From the IMG/VR virus record IMGVR_UViG_3300022758_000104, positions 1-5,761 of that record: a stretch of DNA of 5,761 nt; one strand, given 5' to 3'. The stretch's first letter is position 1, and each line of letters begins with the position of its first letter. Shown in pieces: positions 1 through 5,761 of the stretch. A model generated the notes under the pieces. It was not told the origin of the DNA. It worked only from the letters and a program-made list of their open reading frames with translations, and did no database searches. The stretch is from a virus. A program made the position numbers and the translations under genes.

Positions 1-698
1 CCATTTTCCTGTACTTGTCTTTGTCGTTTCCGTACAGCTTCTTGGTCACATATCCAGCTACGTAGTTATACGTCTCTGGCGTTGCTTGAGCTATGTCAAC
101 TGTCCCTTGTCCCCAGACTTTGACCAGTTTATCACTCGTGTAGTGTCCAAACCTTGACAGTCTGTGAATTGGCTTTAAGTCGTCTGGACGCCACCCGTAA
201 AGTATCATGTGATAGTGCGGCCTTGAGGTGTTGTCTCCATACTCTCCGGCTAGGAAGTATCTTAGAGGTGCTTTGACGGCCTTTCTGAGCCTTTTCATGA
301 ATAACTGGACATCCTCTACGCTTAAAGTTTGCACCGTTCTAGGACGCTCTGATGCGCCTCTCCATACGTTCACGCCTCCTTTGAAGATTTCCCCTGTTTC
401 TGTGTCCTGTGTTGGTACATGGTCGTCATCATAGGTCAGTGTGATGAACCAGATTCTTTTCTTGTTGTGGCCGTATGCTTCCAGCTCCATTCGTGTAGCC
501 CAGTCTTTGCGTTTGCGTAGCTTGCATCCTGTGCATTGTCCGCACGGTATCATCATTACATCTTTGCGATACATCAGGTCTTCATACTTCATTTTGGTCT
601 TATGTATTTCGTTAAAAGAAGCGAGTGAGTATACTCGCCCACTCGCCTCTCTATCATGAGGTACATAAAACCGGATTAACGGTTTGTTACACCCCCAT
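1..698 (-). CDS. VP4: Replication initiation protein (rolling-circle HUH endonuclease, gokushovirus VP4), N-terminal ~232 codons. It continues across the circular junction into 5301-5692.
   Basis: My translation of the minus strand reads MGCNKPLIRFYVPHDREASGRVYSLASFNEIHKTKMKYEDLMYRKDVMMIPCGQCTGCKLRKRKDWATRMELEAYGHNKKRIWFITLTYDDDHVP...RPHYHMILYGW...YNYVAGYVTKK. This contains the gokushovirus Rep N-terminal Cys cluster (PCGQCxGC), the HUH motif (HYHMIL) and the catalytic Tyr motif (YVAGYVTKK). ATG at 698-696 sits 2 nt after the VP2 stop and has the RBS GGAGGT. That ATG is 1 nt out of frame with the Rep body because of a G5 run at 691-695 (plus-strand C5); a run of G4 would restore MGCNKPL. As given, the first in-frame ATG is at 592-590 (MKYEDL...). 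The frame is continuous with ORF 5301..5741 (-). Confidence 0.85.
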
Positions 699-700
699 TT

Positions 701-1582
701 TTACCTCCAATAATTTCCGGTTGTTCCCATACCGATTGTTTGTCTGCGTCCTCTTTCGAGGTTTTCTGCCGCTTCCCTTCTTACTTTGTCTTGGACAGGT
801 AGGGCCGCGAGCTTTTCTTTCAGATTGATTGCTCCTTCTACTGCCGCTCCGGCAATACGCTCCATATCGCCCTTGAGTCTTACCGGGTTTGTTGTGCTTG
901 ACATGATAGCCTGCTGTATGCTCTCTGCCGCGCTTTCAGCGTGATTCCAGGCTTCACTGTGGCTGCTCCAACTGCCGTCCTGTTTGATGCCCGGCAATGC
1001 TGTTGCGCTCAGAGCGCTGCTGGATGCCATGCCCATGCTTGCGCTGCCGATTGTCCCCTGTGCGCCAGCTGGCGTGCTTGCTCCGCCCTGAGTGTATGCA
1101 AGGATAGGATTAATGCCAGCTTTTTTCATGTCTTCTACAGCTCGCTGATAAGCTGTATTGCTCATTTCCTGTTGCCAAGCTCTGTTTTTGGCTGCTTCAG
1201 CTGAATTGAATCTCATTGCGGTTTGCTGTTCGATGTGGTTATACACGCCTTGCTGGATTGCTCCTAGTGTGTTGTAGCCCATCTGCATAAGCATAGAGTT
1301 TTTGTTAAATTTTTGCTGGCTCCCCATGTTGGCTTGGCTTAGTGCGTTTGCAATGCTTGCAATTTCCTTGTTTACACTGTCGTTTGTACCGCCGTTACTG
1401 AAGCTTCCACCGCTGCTTGTGCTGTTCATCCAGCTGCTCCCGCTGCTCGAACTGTTGGCCTGCCCTGCTTGTCCGTAGCTTGAGCTTGTGCCAAACAGCT
1501 TGTTTGCTGCAACTCCTGCGATGCTAGGTATTGCGTTTAGTGCTAGTGATTTTAAGAATGGTACTAATGCCGCTAATGCCAT
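701..1582 (-). CDS. VP2: Minor capsid / DNA pilot protein VP2 (293 aa).
   Basis: Contains the motif ...[42 protein letters not shown], characteristic of gokushovirus VP2 pilot proteins. The N-terminal part is low-complexity and Ser/Gly-rich. TAA stop at 703-701 is followed 2 nt later by the VP4 ATG. ATG at 1582 follows the VP1/VP2 intergenic hairpin. Confidence 0.85.
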
Positions 1583-1612
1583 AATAAAATAACCCGGGGT
1601 TTTGCCCCGGGC
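1581..1612 (-). terminator. Intrinsic terminator or attenuator hairpin between VP1 and VP2. The minus-strand stem is CCCGGGG/CCCCGGG with loop caaaa, followed by UUAUUUUAUU.
   Basis: Minus strand reads ...TAAgaaagggggaagCCCGGGGcaaaaCCCCGGGttattttattATG. It has a 7-8 bp all-GC stem and a U-rich tail running directly into the VP2 start codon. Confidence 0.6.
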
Positions 1613-1623
1613 TTCCCCCTTTC

Positions 1624-3289
1624 TTAGTGATGGTCTACGAGACCCGGAATGCTATACATGGGCATAGGTCTCACAGATGTATTGTCGATGATGGTGTCCA
1701 TGATAAACTGAGGCTCGTTGTCCACGGCCAGAGTCCTCTGGATCTCGGAGTCTCCTCCTTCATCCACGTCTGACTCAGGCTTGGAGTCTCTTTATAGTTG
1801 TCTCCGTAGTGCCAGCTGTCCAATGTTCCCTTTGCATTCGAACGGAATTTGCCGCTGATACGGTTAGGCTTCATTCGGTACTCCGCCCCATGGCCTCTTG
1901 ATAACCAAAGGCTTGTTCGTCAGTGCTCGTACCAGTGAGATACAGCTCCTTTTTCAGAATGGCCTGCTCGCCCAGGTTTGCAAACACGGGATAGTAAAAA
2001 TCCAGATTTGTTTTGCGGCTCCACATGCGTTCCAGGCCCTGCTGGTAGGTATGGTCATGCCGGATGCAGCACACACCGATAACATAGCCGTGTTCCTCGA
2101 AACTCTTGGTGAACATACTGCCGTTGTATGGCGTAACGCTCACTGCTGCTGTGTTGCCCTGCGGACTCTCTGCAGTCGTGCCGCTGGTCTGGATGACCTG
2201 ACTCATGTTGATAGTGATGCGCGTGCCGCCCAGATACTCCGGGATTTGTATCGTTTTATCGCTGATTTTCGTGTGAAACAGCGAGTAAATCATCTCGCGG
2301 TAACGACTGCCGCCTCTGGCCAGTTGTTCGTAATATTTTTGAACTTGGAATGCCTGTCGCAGCTGGTTGATGGTCGTTGCCGTAGCGTCTTTCAGATTTG
2401 CACCGAGAAAGTGCATGTTATCTCCTGATGCCATGCTTATGGATCTTCCGTTGTACATGCTATCATATTGGTACGACATTGGCCCCGGCCAGGTGTAGTT
2501 TCCTTCTAACTTTGCCAGTTTTGTTAATTCTCTGTCTTCGTATACTGAGATGTCCGCTGCTTCGCTCATTGGGATTTTCACAGGTTCTCCCGCTTTCTGA
2601 GGGGAAGGCAAAGCCGATGTAAAGTAGTCGTGGTACTTATTTACCGGTAGCGGTCTGCCGCCTGTGTATGCGTTCTGGAGAATATATTCAAGGTCAGGCT
2701 TCGTTGCGTCCATGCCCTTGGTTTCATCATCAGTATAGTTTACGGTTGCATCTTCTTTGCTGTTGACGGCTGGATTGTCCACGTTCTGGTCTCGGAACCA
2801 CTCCTGCCAGATCATGGCGTAGGCTCTAAACGGCAGTGCGTTAACGCTGAATGCGCTGTCGGCTCCTTTGCTCACTTTGGTAGGAATGCCCATGTAGTCC
2901 ATGATGCTTCCCTCGTACGGCGCCGGTTTGTCAGCTGTGCTGGTTACTTTGACCTGCGGAATGGTGTACTCCTGAGTCTGTGCCCACGGCCCGGTGTCGT
3001 TCTCGCCCATAAACCGCTTGAAGTGGTCCCAGATGATACGGCACGGTACGTTGAAGTAGTAAATATCCATGTGGCAGTTGTCCATAACTGGGAAGATAGG
3101 CGTTGTCATACGGATAATTGCGGCCTGGTCGATGCTGAAGGTGTCACCCGGGAGCACTTCATCCACGTAAAACGGAATGAGCTGTCCCGCGTTCATTGTT
3201 AGCTTGACATCCTGTCGACGTTTGAAGCGACTTCGCGTAATGTCCAGGCGCGGGACCTGGTTGAACCCTGCGTCTTTGTTTCTGTTCAT
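1624..3289 (-). CDS. VP1: Major capsid protein VP1 (F-like jelly-roll capsid with a gokushovirus-type insertion loop), ~548 aa if two frame breaks are repaired. As given it is split into three frames: 1871..3289, 1671..1874 and ~1624..1750.
   Basis: N-terminus [51 protein letters not shown] and ...[20 protein letters not shown] are hallmark Microviridae VP1 motifs. A long variable segment follows, corresponding to the threefold insertion loop. The C-terminal continuation [31 protein letters not shown]... is in a second frame (ORF 1671..1874). The final ...[40 protein letters not shown] is in a third frame ending at TAA 1626-1624. ATG at 3289 overlaps the VP3 stop (ATGA), and RBS AGGAGG lies 10 nt upstream. 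Confidence 0.9.
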
Positions 3290-3765
3290 TCAGCGGCTTC
3301 CTCCTTTTTAGGCTCTTCAGGCTGTTTCTCCTGATAGATTCCCAGATTCTTTGCCCAGTCGATAGTTCCGAAGCTTGCCACGAATTTATCGACGTCGTTG
3401 TCAAATTTGAGCTTGATTTCCTTCGGGATTTCATCCCAGATTTGCTCGGCCCGCAGCATGATGTTCTGAAGCTCCATCAGATTCTCCGGCATCTGGGTTG
3501 CGTCCTGAAGCCCGCCACCCATGTCTGGCACCAGTCTGGCTGCAAGGTCTGGGTCGATGGATGCTCGTCGGATGATGTTTTCTAGCTTGGTCTCTTCCAG
3601 ATAGCTGTCGATTTCTGCTTGCTGGTCTATGGTCTGGTCGAGCGTTAGTACCTTTTCGCCCTTCTTGTTGAGCTCCCAAAGATACGTCCGTCTGATAGTC
3701 TCTCCGGCCTCGGTAGCTTTTGCCGTTGCGGTTTCCCTGAAGTTACTTACTGAGCGATACGCCAT
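3286..3765 (-). CDS. VP3: Internal scaffolding protein VP3 (159 aa from ATG 3765; the ORF track's TTG at 3813 is less likely).
   Basis: ATG at 3765-3763 is preceded by AAGGAGA and a 9-nt spacer. The protein MAYRSVSNFRE...NLMELQNIMLRAEQIWDEIPKEIKLKFDNDVDKFVASF...[10 protein letters not shown] is acidic and helical, the size and character of gokushovirus VP3 scaffolds. Its stop overlaps the VP1 start. Confidence 0.75.
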   Translation of the reverse strand: MAYRSVSNFRETATAKATEAGETIRRTYLWELNKKGEKVLTLDQTIDQQAEIDSYLEETKLENIIRRASIDPDLAARLVPDMGGGLQDATQMPENLMELQNIMLRAEQIWDEIPKEIKLKFDNDVDKFVASFGTIDWAKNLGIYQEKQPEEPKKEEAAE

Positions 3766-3979
3766 CGAAGATGTTCTCCTTTTCGTTCTCGAACAGGCCC
3801 GTTTTCTCGTCAAATTTTGCCAGACGTACTAATCGATAGTCGCTGGTCGTTTTGCTCATGATGTTGGCCGGGTCAGTTAATGCGATTTTGAAATTGCGTT
3901 CGGCTACCCTGTCCTCGCGCTCGGTAAAGATGGTGATGTAACCCATCACGCATTTGTCGAAGATTCCGTATACGTTCAT
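3743..3979 (-). CDS. Hypothetical protein, 78 aa.
   Basis: ATG at 3979 is preceded by a strong RBS (AAGGAGAcaaccatATG). The 3' end overlaps the VP3 start by 23 nt. No motif I can recognise. Confidence 0.55.
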   Translation of the reverse strand: MNVYGIFDKCVMGYITIFTEREDRVAERNFKIALTDPANIMSKTTSDYRLVRLAKFDEKTGLFENEKENIFDGVSLSK

Positions 3980-3991
3980 ATGGTTGTCTCC

Positions 3992-4090
3992 TTACTTGAA
4001 CCATTCTTTGATGATGTCGATTGCGATTATAACCAACACAAACGCGCTTGCCAGAGCTGCCGTTGTGATTCCTGCGAATAGTACACTCAC
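3992..4090 (-). CDS. Candidate small hydrophobic transmembrane peptide, 32 aa, with a GTG start overlapping the J-like stop (GTGA).
   Basis: My translation is MSVLFAGITTAALASAFVLVIIAIDIIKEWFK: one uninterrupted hydrophobic helix with a charged C-terminus. GAGGGGG lies 9 nt upstream of the GTG. Its TAA stop is embedded in the RBS of the next gene. It is absent from the ORF track because it is short and starts at GTG. Confidence 0.35.
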   Translation of the reverse strand: MSVLFAGITTAALASAFVLVIIAIDIIKEWFK

Positions 4091-4206
4091 AGTCTGATGC
4101 CCCCTCTCATCGCTCCGCTTCCCAGGTTAATGGCCTTGGTTTTGCGTGCTGTCTTGTTGAAGATTTTTGCGTCTTTCGACTTGCGTACTTTACTCCTCTT
4201 TGCCAT
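4087..4206 (-). CDS. Small basic DNA-binding/packaging protein (J-like; gokushovirus VP8/ORF8 analogue), 39 aa.
   Basis: My translation from ATG 4206 is MAKRSKVRKSKDAKIFNKTARKTKAINLGSGAMRGGIRL*. It is very Lys/Arg-rich, and its C-terminal RGGxRL resembles the RGGxRF/L ending of gokushovirus and SpV4 protein 8. A weak RBS (GAAGGGA) lies upstream. It overlaps the end of the 75-aa ORF by 17 nt. It falls below the ORF track length cutoff. Confidence 0.65.
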   Translation of the reverse strand: MAKRSKVRKSKDAKIFNKTARKTKAINLGSGAMRGGIRL

Positions 4207-4417
4207 GGTTGATGTCCCTTCTGAGGATTTCTACCTCAATGTCGTTTGCTGCCGCCTTCTTGCGAAACGCGAGGTCAATGTAATATTTGGCGTCTTCGAT
4301 TGTTGCGGCCTGTCGTACCAGTTTGTACGCGGCATCTATTGTCTTGTAGGTTTTCATCAATTCCTGCATAAGGTTCTCGTCGGTCTGGTCTCTTGCATTC
4401 CATGTTTTCTTCTCCAT
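4190..4417 (-). CDS. Hypothetical protein, 75 aa; by position a candidate VP5-like protein.
   Basis: ATG at 4417 is preceded by GGAGA and a 6-nt spacer. The protein is charged and helical (MEKKTWNARDQTDENLMQELMKTYKTIDAAYKLVRQAATIEDAKYY...). It lies immediately upstream of the J-like gene, where VP5 sits in classical gokushoviruses; this is inferred from position only. Confidence 0.5.
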   Translation of the reverse strand: MEKKTWNARDQTDENLMQELMKTYKTIDAAYKLVRQAATIEDAKYYIDLAFRKKAAANDIEVEILRRDINHGKEE

Positions 4418-4603
4418 GTTAAGTCTCCGTTTCGTTTTCTGTTACTGTGTGGTAGATTTTGTCCAGCATCGCAAGGATTTTTTCGATTTTGTCAAACAGC
4501 GTTTTGATTTCTTGGAGAGTCAGAGCGGTTCACCTCTTTCGTAAAGTTATTTTGTAAAAATGGAATTTGTCAGAGGAACTTCTTTGCTGCTTAACTGTTT
4601 TTG

Positions 4604-4810
4604 TTATATCAAAAAAAAGAGAGATTGGCAATCCCTCTTTTCCGGTTTTTTATTTCGTTCGTCGAGTTCCTTTTTGACTTCTTCGTATACGTATCTGCAA
4701 CGGTGTTCTTTGACTTTGCATGGGCAGCTCTCACAATCCCCTTTACAATATTCGTATCTGTACTTCATGTAGAGTAACTGTTTGTTACTTGCAAACCGTA
4801 TACTAGTCAT
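4604..4810 (-). CDS. Hypothetical Cys-rich small protein, 68 aa; possible zinc-binding fold.
   Basis: Excellent RBS (AAAGGAGAacaaatATG). The motif YCKGDCESCPCKVKEHRC (C-x3-C-x2-C-x-C...H-x-C) suggests metal binding. The C-terminal codons run through a terminator hairpin and a T8 run, so the exact 3' end is uncertain. Confidence 0.5.
   Translation of the reverse strand: MTSIRFASNKQLLYMKYRYEYCKGDCESCPCKVKEHRCRYVYEEVKKELDERNKKPEKRDCQSLFFLI
4611..4639 (-). terminator. Intrinsic terminator: a 9-bp stem (AAGAGGGAU/AUCUCUCUU with one G-U pair) and 5-nt loop, followed by U8.
   Basis: Minus strand reads ccggaAAGAGGGATtgccaATCTCTCTTtttttt. It lies at the 3' end of the 68-aa ORF. The plus strand carries the same hairpin followed by cttttccggtttttt, so it may act in both directions. 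Confidence 0.55.
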
Positions 4811-4874
4811 ATTTGTTCTCCTTTACTGTGAAGTAGCTTGCTATGCGCTGAACTTGGTACAGCTCTGTGATTTT

Positions 4875-4903
4875 ATTGTACCGTATTTTTAGAAGAAAGT
4901 CGA
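4875..4903 (-). promoter_or_regulatory. Candidate sigma70-type promoter for the small-gene/structural operon: -35 TCGACT, 17-bp spacer, -10 TACAAT.
   Basis: Minus strand reads ...TCGACTttcttctaaaaatacggTACAATaaaatcacag..., about 65 nt upstream of the 68-aa gene ATG. This is hexamer matching only, and the host is unknown. Confidence 0.25.
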
Positions 4904-4942
4904 GATTTTTTGAAAAAAAGTTAGAAGAATTTTGCATTGAAG

Positions 4943-5009
4943 GTCATGCGCTAGGCGCGGTGCGCCGTACGAAGAGCATGACGTAACTTTCCGGTCAGCT
5001 GCCGAGCTG
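4943..5009. promoter_or_regulatory. GC-rich cluster of nested palindromes in an AT-rich intergenic region. GTCATGC/GCATGAC (4943-4949 and 4976-4982) enclose the tight hairpin GGCGCggtGCGCC (4954-4966). CAGCTgccgAGCTG follows at 4996-5009.
   Basis: Inverted repeats read directly from the sequence. Candidate origin, cruciform or protein-binding site. Confidence 0.4.
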
Positions 5010-5023
5010 CCTCTGATTGAGTT

Positions 5024-5306
5024 TTCAACACTTTTAACACTTTCAACAGGTTTTCCACAAAAAGTTGCACAAATGGTTTTGTGCATATTGCTATACTTTC
5101 AACAATTCAACAAGTTTTCAACAAAATTTTCAACATCAAAATGATTCATAAAATATCGTTCCATGGATAAAAATTTATAGTATTCAACATTTCAACACTC
5201 CCTACTACTGCTACTACAACAAGTAAATAATAAAATAATAAAAATCGTGCGTGCATGTGCGCGATTACGTGCGCGTGCGCGAACGATTCAACAAAATAAA
5301 TCAACA
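5024..5306. repeat. Iteron-like array: at least 9 exact copies of TTCAACA plus about 4 one-mismatch variants. On the viral strand the motif reads TGTTGAA(A).
   Basis: Exact copies on the plus strand at 5024, 5042, 5098, 5106, 5117, 5129, 5183, 5191 and 5287. Variants: tttaaca at 5033, ttccaca at 5053, tacaaca at ~5214, atcaaca at 5300. Several are adjacent pairs. A given 7-mer is expected about 0.02 times in 280 bp. Confidence 0.7.
5244..5283. other. GC-rich alternating purine/pyrimidine tract (cgtgcgtgcatgtgcgcgattacgtgcgcgtgcgcg) inside the iteron region, flanked by A/T runs.
   Basis: Read directly from the sequence. It has Z-DNA-like CG/TG alternation and an imperfect direct repeat of CGTGCG(C/T)G units. 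It is a sharp compositional island within AT-rich DNA. Confidence 0.4.
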
Positions 5307-5761
5307 AAATAAAAAATACTCAGCCAAGTATATATACTTGATAGTTACTTGGCTGAGTGACACCAGAGCTAAAAAACGCCCCTTTGCTTTGGACATCTTC
5401 TTCTTCATGGCTGCTTCTTTATCGGCTAGTTGTTCGGCATACTGTTTGTCAGTTTCCATGTTTCTTTCAATTAGGGACGCGATGGCTTTTTCTTGTCGAT
5501 ACTTCTTAATTCTCCACGCCTTTTCAGGATTTTCTGCTTCCAGCTTTCGCCAATAATATTCTGGAATGGCTGCTCTCTTGCCGTTTGTCAGCTGGATGTA
5601 CCCCTGCTGCCAGAGTCTTTCTTGGTTCTTCTGGAACCATTCGTCTCCGAGTCCTGGCTTTCGGCTCATTACGCAGAATGGCGGTATGAGTCCCATTTTC
5701 CTGTACTTGTCTTTGTCGTTTCCGTACAGCTTCTTGGTCACATATCCAGCTACGTAGTTAT
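5301..5761 (-). CDS. VP4: Replication initiation protein VP4, C-terminal part. Bases 5693-5761 duplicate 1-69; the stop codon is at 5303-5301.
   Basis: The ORF track protein ...KLYGNDKDKYRKMGLIPPFCVMSRKPGLGDEWFQKNQERLWQQGYIQLTNGKRAAIPEYYWRKLEAENPEKAW... matches the conserved C-terminal region of Microviridae Rep proteins. It is in frame with the N-terminal part across the 5692/1 junction, giving about 362 aa in total. The last ~25 aa (RFLALVSLSQVTIKYIYLAEYFLFC) are translated through a terminator hairpin and may be artefactual. Confidence 0.8.
   Translation of the reverse strand, partial: NYVAGYVTKKLYGNDKDKYRKMGLIPPFCVMSRKPGLGDEWFQKNQERLWQQGYIQLTNGKRAAIPEYYWRKLEAENPEKAWRIKKYRQEKAIASLIERNMETDKQYAEQLADKEAAMKKKMSKAKGRFLALVSLSQVTIKYIYLAEYFLFC
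5311..5357 (-). terminator. Intrinsic terminator after VP4: a 12-bp stem (CTCAGCCAAGTA/TACTTGGCTGAG) and 15-nt loop, followed by UAUUUUUUAUUUUGUU.
   Basis: Minus strand reads CTCAGCCAAGTAactatcaagtatataTACTTGGCTGAGtattttttattttgttga. The stem is at plus 5319-5330 and 5346-5357, and the U-tract is at 5303-5318. It overlaps the annotated VP4 3' end. Confidence 0.6.
5693..5761. repeat. Terminal redundancy: an exact 69-bp duplicate of window positions 1-69. It is an artefact of linearising a circular genome, not a biological repeat.
   Basis: Direct comparison of the two window ends shows identical strings: ccattttcctgtacttgtctttgtcgtttccgtacagcttcttggtcacatatccagctacgtagttat. Confidence 0.95.

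Follow-up and report, generated by a model that had tools for sequence, protein, structure and literature searches.

A noncoding module of about 215 bp in the genome of a single-stranded-DNA gut phage is best read as a near-complete copy of a bacterial chromosome origin, which was unexpected. The module occupies positions 5019–5246 of the window, by which we mean the whole stretch of DNA analysed (5,761 nucleotides, positions 1 to 5,761 of IMG/VR virus record IMGVR_UViG_3300022758_000104), and the core common to relatives runs from 5019 to 5240. The window is a circular gokushovirus genome with every gene on the minus strand. Its recognised genes encode VP1–VP5, among them the rolling-circle HUH replication protein (Rep) VP4 (a phrog_942 match, with PF23343 in the N-terminal part), and it has no dnaA and no dnaN. 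Read along the plus strand, the module presents four to five DnaA-type boxes, a hairpin-bearing spacer, four further boxes, a spacer of ~45 nt, a tandem box pair, the sequence CTCC, a run of trios and an AT-rich tract. Because it resides on a circular gokushovirus genome, with neither a bacterial chromosome around it nor dnaA or dnaN beside it, we refer to an oriC-type module on a phage and not to an oriC.

A sequence-only reading of this DNA had drawn attention to at least nine exact copies and about four variants of the heptamer TTCAACA, some of them as adjacent pairs, and all of these were located. The plus-strand copies start at 5024, 5042, 5098, 5106, 5117, 5129, 5183, 5191 and 5287, and the tenth copy in the window lies on the minus strand at 4155. 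One-base variants, namely TTTAACA (5033), TTCCACA (5053), TTGCACA (5065) and ATCAACA (5300), stand in register with the exact copies, and adjacent boxes form pairs at 5098/5106 and 5183/5191. The view that this is a real repeat family and not a product of chance held up, as 1.06 copies (standard deviation 0.96) are expected in the whole window of 5,761 nt on both strands, and 0 of 200 dinucleotide-preserving shuffles gave at least ten. The array was also correctly placed between the Rep stop and the next gene: it lies within a 490-nt noncoding stretch from the VP4 stop codon (5301–5303) to a minus-strand open reading frame (ORF) starting at 4810. Extended copies had been described as zero or one mismatch from the relaxed DnaA-box consensus TTWTNCACA, and indeed TTTTCCACA at 5051–5059 matches it exactly, and the TTTTCAACA copies at 5022, 5115 and 5127 are one mismatch off. 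Elements that had escaped that reading are the proximal boxes, the 4-bp GC spacer, the CTA trios and the AT-rich tract at 5181–5245, and the fact that the whole forms a discrete, mobile and invertible module.

Each phage module carries 9–11 boxes. Their consensus over 97 copies is nTTTCAACA, with A at position 6 in 84 and C in 13, and the boxes that replace it in relatives (TTATCCACA, TTTTCCACA or TTATCAACA) all belong to the DnaA-box family. Within the first distal cluster the boxes follow one another at 9–11 nt from start to start, as in host oriC, and the third box of the second cluster is TTATCCACA, a perfect canonical DnaA box, in relatives L001, L002 and L016.

Downstream of these clusters, the window has the layout of a basal unwinding system (BUS). 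A published BUS comprises a tandem DnaA-box pair, at least three 3′-GAT-5′ trios with a central A (5′-CTA-3′ on the opposite strand) and an AT-rich tract, with the better box at most 16 bp from the first trio and a peak at 10–13. The GC-rich spacer after the proximal box measures 4–5 bp (PMC8235120). Moreover, the orientation of the proximal box is essential in Bacillus subtilis, where reversal of boxes #6/#7 renders the origin inactive. In the window, a tandem pair of fixed polarity stands directly upstream of the trios, its upstream box 12 bp before the first CTA and a 4-bp GC spacer in between. Five consecutive trios follow, all with a central T on the plus strand, and the 30-bp segment from 5215 onward is the least stable in the genome (−28.5 kcal/mol; mean −40.2, standard deviation 3.4). 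The tandem pair, co-oriented with the CTA strand and one mismatch from TTWTNCACA, is the equivalent of B. subtilis boxes #6/#7. At the level of sequence, every defining element of a BUS is present in the window, in the order, spacing and polarity of a bacterial oriC.

These features recur among the phages. The GC spacer is 4 nt long in 35 of 44 phage modules, as it is in 11 of 11 host oriCs; the trio columns are at least 95% conserved, and CTACTACTAC is found in 39 of 44 genomes. Behind the trios lies the extension CAACAAGT, and CTACAACAAG is found in 43 of the 44 genomes. By instability, the candidate DNA unwinding element (DUE) zone comes first in six of 12 relatives and falls within or next to the five top-ranking sites in 11.

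The suggestion that the boxes are DnaA boxes gained weight from bacterial chromosomes, since the same box type fills the dnaA–dnaN spacers of Ruminococcus and Oscillospiraceae; in phage relatives, single boxes are swapped for TTATCCACA or TTTTCCACA. One scan of 185,579 species genomes, with three close TTTCAACA boxes as the query, returned at least 120 loci. About 41 among the 120 listed belong to Ruminococcus, Oscillospiraceae, Ruminococcaceae, Acutalibacteraceae or unclassified Clostridia from guts and rumens, all of these host genomes being metagenome-assembled genomes (MAGs). The arrays adjoin dnaA and/or dnaN in at least 20 loci, the two genes being identified by Pfam for four loci and by similarity for the rest. 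A prophage origin of the bacterial matches was rejected, as neither VP1 nor VP4 occurs in the 120 listed box-array loci. In the 11 loci with both genes, 14–35 boxes in the spacer are co-oriented with the genes and 2–5 are opposed. At least 15 loci end, just upstream of dnaN, in TTTTCAACA-G-TTTCAACA-CCCC-(CTA)5 and AT-rich DNA, and the terminal tandem pair has the same polarity and place in the phage and in 15 host origins.

Furthermore, the phage profile is collinear over ~180 nt with the DUE-proximal part of the host spacer (E-values 3.6e-16 to 5e-13), in an alignment that spans cluster, spacer, cluster, palindrome spacer, tandem pair, GC spacer and trios. Box spacing is 8–12 nt in phage and host alike, and the ratio of boxes with A at position 6 (A6) to canonical boxes agrees, at 142:54 in the phage modules and 141:37 in the spacers of the hosts. 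Three of these spacers lack canonical boxes altogether, and there the A6 type must therefore act as the DnaA box. The recognition helix of the host DnaA (L179, L240, L145 and others) reads RDHSTIVYA, compared with RDHTTV(L/I)HA in the solved DnaA of Escherichia coli (RDHTTVLHA), B. subtilis (RDHTTVIHA) and Aquifex. The two changes, Thr to Ser and His to Tyr, may underlie the preference for A over C at box position 6, although this is only a lead. The module is best explained as having been copied from, or modelled on, a host dnaA–dnaN origin, and the hosts are likely to be Clostridia of the order Oscillospirales, such as Ruminococcus or Oscillospiraceae. This agrees with a CRISPR-based prediction that gut gokushoviruses infect Clostridiales (PMC10159846).

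Two further observations concern the bacterial genomes. Dense intergenic clusters of TTTCAACA lie away from dnaA in the Ruminococcus MAGs L181 (520–1110), L196 (6130–6590) and L202 (2890–3280), next to genes that include a SpoU methylase, a biotin ligase/BirA-type regulator and an aspartokinase, which indicates several DnaA-box clusters per genome in these bacteria. In addition, a siphovirus-type prophage in a Ruminococcus MAG (JAZRCW010000067, L228, positions 2737–2931) has an oriC-like module of the same architecture, with ~11 TTTCAACA boxes, a palindrome spacer, a tandem pair, GGCT, CTACTAATACTACTA and AT-rich DNA. The prophage genes include a large serine recombinase, a Gp37-like tail protein and Dit, and origin mimicry would by this example not be confined to microviruses.

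Among gokushoviruses, both the motif and its arrangement are conserved in relatives, a comparison that the sequence-only reading had set beforehand as a check on the array. In a blastn search of GenBank phages, 43 records of gut gokushoviruses, from faeces of humans, pigs, monkeys and others, matched the noncoding region, among them genomes without a megablast match in coding DNA. A nucleotide profile of the core found a full-length copy in each of 50 microvirus genomes. Box columns and the segment CCTACTACTACnnCTACAACAAGT are 90–100% conserved across 47 distinct modules, and both spacers vary, with indels. The module is under selective constraint: in 26 genomes with VP1 protein less than 60% identical, nucleotide identity to the window is 0.80 for the module, 0.69 for VP4 and 0.67 for VP1, over a shuffle baseline of 0.52, and 10-mers common to at least 80% of 44 near-complete genomes fall in the module only.

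To assess the distribution free of motif ascertainment, the 80 IMG/VR genomes with the VP1 nearest to that of the window were taken. Among those with a VP1 identity of at least 47%, 53 of 57 carry the module, compared with 0 of 23 at 43–46%, and no comparable repeat or heptamer array was found in the 27 module-less VP1 relatives. Likewise, no comparable module was found in the cultured gokushoviruses phiMH2K, Chp2 and SpV4. The modules of L016 and L040 (IMG/VR 3300045988_020851 and _005036) are 92% identical to that of the window although the proteins have diverged to ~50% (VP1) and ~42% (VP4) identity, which points to exchange by mosaic recombination. In a second module-bearing lineage, capsids are ~41% and modules ~80% identical to those of the window, which fits passage of the module between gokushovirus lineages. 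Searches of PLSDB plasmids for relatives of the module, and of E. coli genomes for prophage relatives of the window, gave no match. The VP3 of L016 is also close to that of the window (84% identical).

The module occurs in three arrangements of position and orientation. In the lineage of the window (arrangement A) it lies downstream of VP4 and antisense to the genes; in KX513876, KT264784 and others, with VP1 ~41% identical, it lies between VP2 and VP4 in sense orientation (B); and in MG945447 (L008) and the IMG/VR genome L403 it lies downstream of VP4 in sense orientation (C). These last two are divergent genomes, each with flanks collinear to those of its close relatives and only the ~219-bp module precisely inverted in place. 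The module adjoins VP4 in every arrangement. Any function maintained through such changes is unlikely to rest on a particular strand or neighbouring gene.

We consider it probable, with considerable room for doubt, that host DnaA binds and opens the module on the double-stranded replicative form much as it does oriC on the chromosome. DnaA would fill the two distal clusters and the proximal tandem pair, oligomerise over the 4-bp GC spacer onto the CTA/GAT trios and then melt the adjoining AT-rich tract. The phage would thus have a place where the host opens the duplex and loads helicase, and which could serve to amplify or maintain the replicative form. As the element would act on duplex DNA through a host protein, it would tolerate both orientations and a position on either side of Rep.

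Several points weigh against this proposal. Binding of DnaA to TTTCAACA-type boxes is something we infer, and such a box departs from TTWTNCACA at a position that is normally conserved. The taxonomic picture is an ascertained one, since the motif itself served to retrieve the host loci, and boxes of this type are also found in a few other taxa (Mesoaciditoga and an Alistipes-labelled MAG). In six of the 12 genomes, the DUE zone does not rank as the single least stable site. Moreover, the microvirus already has a rolling-circle Rep, VP4 appearing intact by domain match, and the cultured gokushoviruses do without any such module, which leaves the need for a second, DnaA-driven opening site unexplained. 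Finally, the model leaves the invariant CAACAAGT, which is not in host origins, unaccounted for.

A passive role could be served by the boxes themselves. Present on a multicopy replicative form, the module might act as a sink that titrates host DnaA without any origin firing, so that host initiation or DnaA-regulated genes are blocked or reprogrammed, or phage development is tied to DnaA-ATP. datA and DnaA-box clusters titrate DnaA in this way; the 9–11 boxes per module and their independence from orientation and position suit a passive binding array, and the clusters off oriC in L181, L196 and L202 are in keeping with it. The injection-stop (iss) region of T5-like phages offers a precedent, with ~8 organised DnaA boxes, including TTATCAACA, that were called oriC-reminiscent and for which the authors argue against a replication role (bioRxiv 10.1101/866236). 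Likewise a noncoding DnaA-box cluster of a phage, iss is the nearest phage precedent that we found, but its boxes form inverted-repeat pairs, neither trios nor a DUE are described, and the carrier is a large double-stranded-DNA phage of E. coli. Nevertheless, the strongest conservation in the gokushovirus module is that of the trios, the fixed box-spacer-trio geometry and the AT-rich tract, and these weigh against a pure duplex-binding sink, which needs none of them. We therefore regard a sink as unlikely, if worth keeping in mind.

The microvirus-specific sequence behind the trios could instead point to a composite origin, in which DnaA melts the DUE and thereby exposes CTACAACAAGT as a single-stranded nick substrate for VP4. 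The host initiator would then license rolling circle replication, and the orientation of the module would set the strand that is displaced and packaged. HUH nucleases require a single-stranded substrate. Moreover, CTACAACAAG is invariant (43/44), specific to microviruses and absent from host origins and the L228 module; no other conserved nucleotide motif in these genomes qualifies as a common Rep site; and the module always adjoins VP4. With regard to an origin of the phiX174 type, CTACAACAAGT is a possible Rep site, and AACTTG, on the complement of the invariant CAAGTT, resembles the phiX174 nick site. However, this resemblance extends over six letters, AACTTG is not seen in phiMH2K, Chp2 and SpV4 as a conserved motif between genes, and no phiX-like origin was found in cultured gokushoviruses. 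In addition, relative to the genes, arrangement A has the motif on one strand and arrangements B and C have it on the other, which would require opposite packaged strands, and we know of no such case in Microviridae. We consider a composite origin improbable; were it true, some microviruses would package the antisense strand and their replication would be gated by the host initiator.

That another host protein with a box-like motif uses the array, either Spo0A, in a coupling to sporulation as in phi29, or a nucleoid protein, seems to us very improbable. The complement of the box, TGTTGAA, is one mismatch from the 0A box TGTCGAA, and Spo0A sites overlap DnaA boxes in oriC and in phi29. Yet the consensus TGTCGAA is absent from 47 phage modules and 11 host origin spacers, the boxes interchange with TTATCCACA and TTTTCCACA, some host spacers hold no other candidate DnaA box, and the box-spacer-trio geometry is specific to DnaA.

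The remaining options, VP4 iterons, −35-like hexamers and a structured noncoding RNA or small ORF, are the least credible. The sequence-only reading had entertained binding sites for Rep, promoter elements and a complementary-strand origin, and the first two found some support in the place of the array beside Rep and in the likeness of TTGAAA to TTGACA; all three now appear unlikely. Rep iterons do so because the unit is a host chromosomal motif: the 8–9-bp repeat is identical to the host boxes and recurs in the same arrangement in host chromosomal origins that lack VP4, and the sole initiator of the phage is the HUH Rep. Repeated −35 elements are disfavoured because the module flips in orientation and position relative to the genes and because the promoter scan was weak, with four 9-of-12 matches over the region, of which a single one falls in the array, compared with 1.8 ± 1.2 in shuffles. 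A strand-specific complementary-strand origin is hard to reconcile with a module whose orientation is not fixed. Concerning a structured RNA or small protein, RNAalifold found 0 conserved pairs in 16 modules, an Rfam scan of the window at E-values up to 1 gave no match, no frame is open in more than four of 47 modules, and the indels are not multiples of three; the module has the marks of neither.

The closest known system is the B. subtilis incC-type oriC with its BUS, which agrees with the phage module in order, polarity and spacing, and in the distal clusters, the tandem pair, the GC spacer, the five trios and the AT-rich tract. The phage version differs in its carrier, a single-stranded-DNA phage of 5.8 kb, in occurring in both orientations and on both sides of Rep, in its length (~215 bp compared with host spacers of 420–1530 bp) and in the invariant CAACAAGT added after the trios. 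Host DnaA boxes near an AT-rich opening site are also found on mobile elements such as P1 oriR, F, pSC101 and RK2, which depend on an element-encoded initiator and iterons of 17–22 bp; by contrast, the phage module has neither such iterons nor such an initiator, its boxes being all of the host type and followed by trios. Enterobacterial gokushovirus prophages mimic the host dif site and integrate by means of XerCD. In that case, too, a gokushovirus copies a host chromosomal cis-element and exploits a housekeeping machine, but the element is dif and not oriC, the machine XerCD and not DnaA, and the outcome integration.

Literature searches on gokushoviruses or Microviridae with DnaA, DnaA box or oriC returned nothing relevant, although an earlier mention elsewhere is possible, and a search for the motif string returned primers only. 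As far as we have found, a full chromosomal-type unwinding module with boxes, trios and DUE is new for any virus. Microviridae serve as the textbook example of rolling-circle phages, and in the human gut gokushoviruses rank among the most abundant viruses; to our knowledge, no member of the clade of the window has been cultured and no host of the clade is known. If the proposed DnaA-driven opening is correct, a small rolling-circle virus has acquired a cellular-type, DnaA-operated origin, and its sequence would predict hosts within Oscillospirales (Ruminococcus, Oscillospiraceae) and guide isolation. The module would also be a compact natural origin of 215 bp for work on DnaA-trio mechanics and for vectors in hard-to-transform gut Clostridia, and would suggest a possible way for such phages to persist as episomes governed by the host cell cycle. 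Furthermore, nTTTCAACA would be documented as a variant DnaA box that predominates in a major order of gut bacteria, and origin capture may be a wider strategy, given the module in the Ruminococcus siphovirus-type prophage (L228).

Table 1 Features of the module and genes of the window (5,761 nt).
Feature	Coordinates	Strand	Sequence or remark
Distal cluster 1	5022..5059	+	TTTTCAACA 5022-5030, CTTTTAACA 5031-5039, CTTTCAACA 5040-5048, TTTTCCACA 5051-5059
Weak fifth box	5063-5071	+	AGTTGCACA; overlaps spacer-1 hairpin
Spacer-1 hairpin	5066-5073 / 5078-5085		TGCACAAA/TTTGTGCA; inverted repeat
Distal cluster 2	5096..5135	+	CTTTCAACA 5096-5104, AATTCAACA 5104-5112, TTTTCAACA 5115-5123, TTTTCAACA 5127-5135
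Variable spacer 2	5136..5180	+	~45 nt; short palindrome about 5151-5176
DUE-proximal tandem boxes	5181..5197	+	TATTCAACA 5181-5189, TTTCAACA 5190-5197
GC-rich 4-bp spacer	5198..5201	+	CTCC; between proximal box and trios
DnaA-trio array	5202..5216	+	CTA CTA CTG CTA CTA; other strand 3′-GAT GAT GAC GAT GAT-5′
Extension after trios	5217..5224	+	CAACAAGT; microvirus-specific, invariant
AT-rich unwinding tract (candidate DUE)	5224..5245	+
GC-rich hairpin	5243..5288		Alternating purine-pyrimidine runs (CGTGCGTGCATGTGCGCG..CGTGCGCGTGCGCG); abuts AT-rich tract
Extra boxes past hairpin	5285-5293; 5298-5306	+	GATTCAACA; AAATCAACA, overlapping VP4 stop codon
VP2	1582..701	-
VP1	3289..1871	-	Main ORF; C-terminal part in second frame 1874..1671
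VP3	3813..3286	-
VP5	3979..3743	-
Two small ORFs after VP5			No family assigned
VP4 (Rep)	592 -> circular junction -> stop 5301-5303	-	350 aa; 3′ part 5301..5761

Neither the 15 host BUS sequences nor the prophage module of L228 contains the extension listed in Table 1. Spacer 1 varies in sequence among relatives, its hairpin being usually retained (for example CGTCAT..ATGACG), and spacer 2 is poorly conserved apart from a small CG..CG palindrome; at the place of phage spacer 2, host oriCs show a spacer of about the same length, likewise with a palindrome. The equivalent of spacer 1 (5060–5095) also contains the relaxed Spo0A-like motif TGNCGAA, with 27 instances across 47 modules, typically as TGACGAA (reverse complement TTCGTCA), at least some of which sit in the arms of the hairpin CGTCAT..ATGACG (L003, L005, L008). 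Beyond the AT-rich tract, the hairpin at 5243–5288 keeps its position in all relatives, and its sequence is not conserved. Together with a T-run on the minus strand it looks like a VP4 terminator, and its sequence could potentially form Z-DNA or a cruciform. Conservation in relatives was not found for the extra boxes at 5285–5306.

Around the module, the small ORFs of 68 aa (Cys-rich) and 75 aa have neither a Pfam nor a PHROG family, and the 65-aa ORF at 4889–5086 on the minus strand has no PHROG match. VP1 is split between a 472-aa ORF, which covers phrog_514 profile positions 6–432, and a 67-aa ORF in another frame, which covers 438–479; the frameshift near 1871–1874 is either a sequencing error or a real shift. 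An inverted repeat with 18-nt arms (ACTCAGCCAAGTATATAT / ATAGTTACTTGGCTGAGT) lies at 5318–5358, inside the last ~22 codons of VP4, and as this tail is outside the Rep profile match, the true end of VP4, or a cis-element, may lie there.

Elsewhere among gokushoviruses, Chlamydia phage 2 (L132) has two adjacent perfect relaxed DnaA boxes (TTTTGCACA), 12 nt apart, at 2820–2840 on the minus strand, at or just past the VP3 3′ end and before the VP3–ORF8 intergenic region; the pair is isolated and without trios. A search of IMG/VR for canonical TTATCCACA pairs gave many matches, with no gokushovirus and no BUS among the first 120 listed. In the window, the left part of the noncoding stretch (4864–5020) has a hairpin at 4943–4982 and repeated TTAGAAGAA, is conserved in a subset of relatives only (for example MT135258 and MG945391), and includes a promoter-like minus-strand site, TCGACT-17-TACAAT, at 4903–4875.

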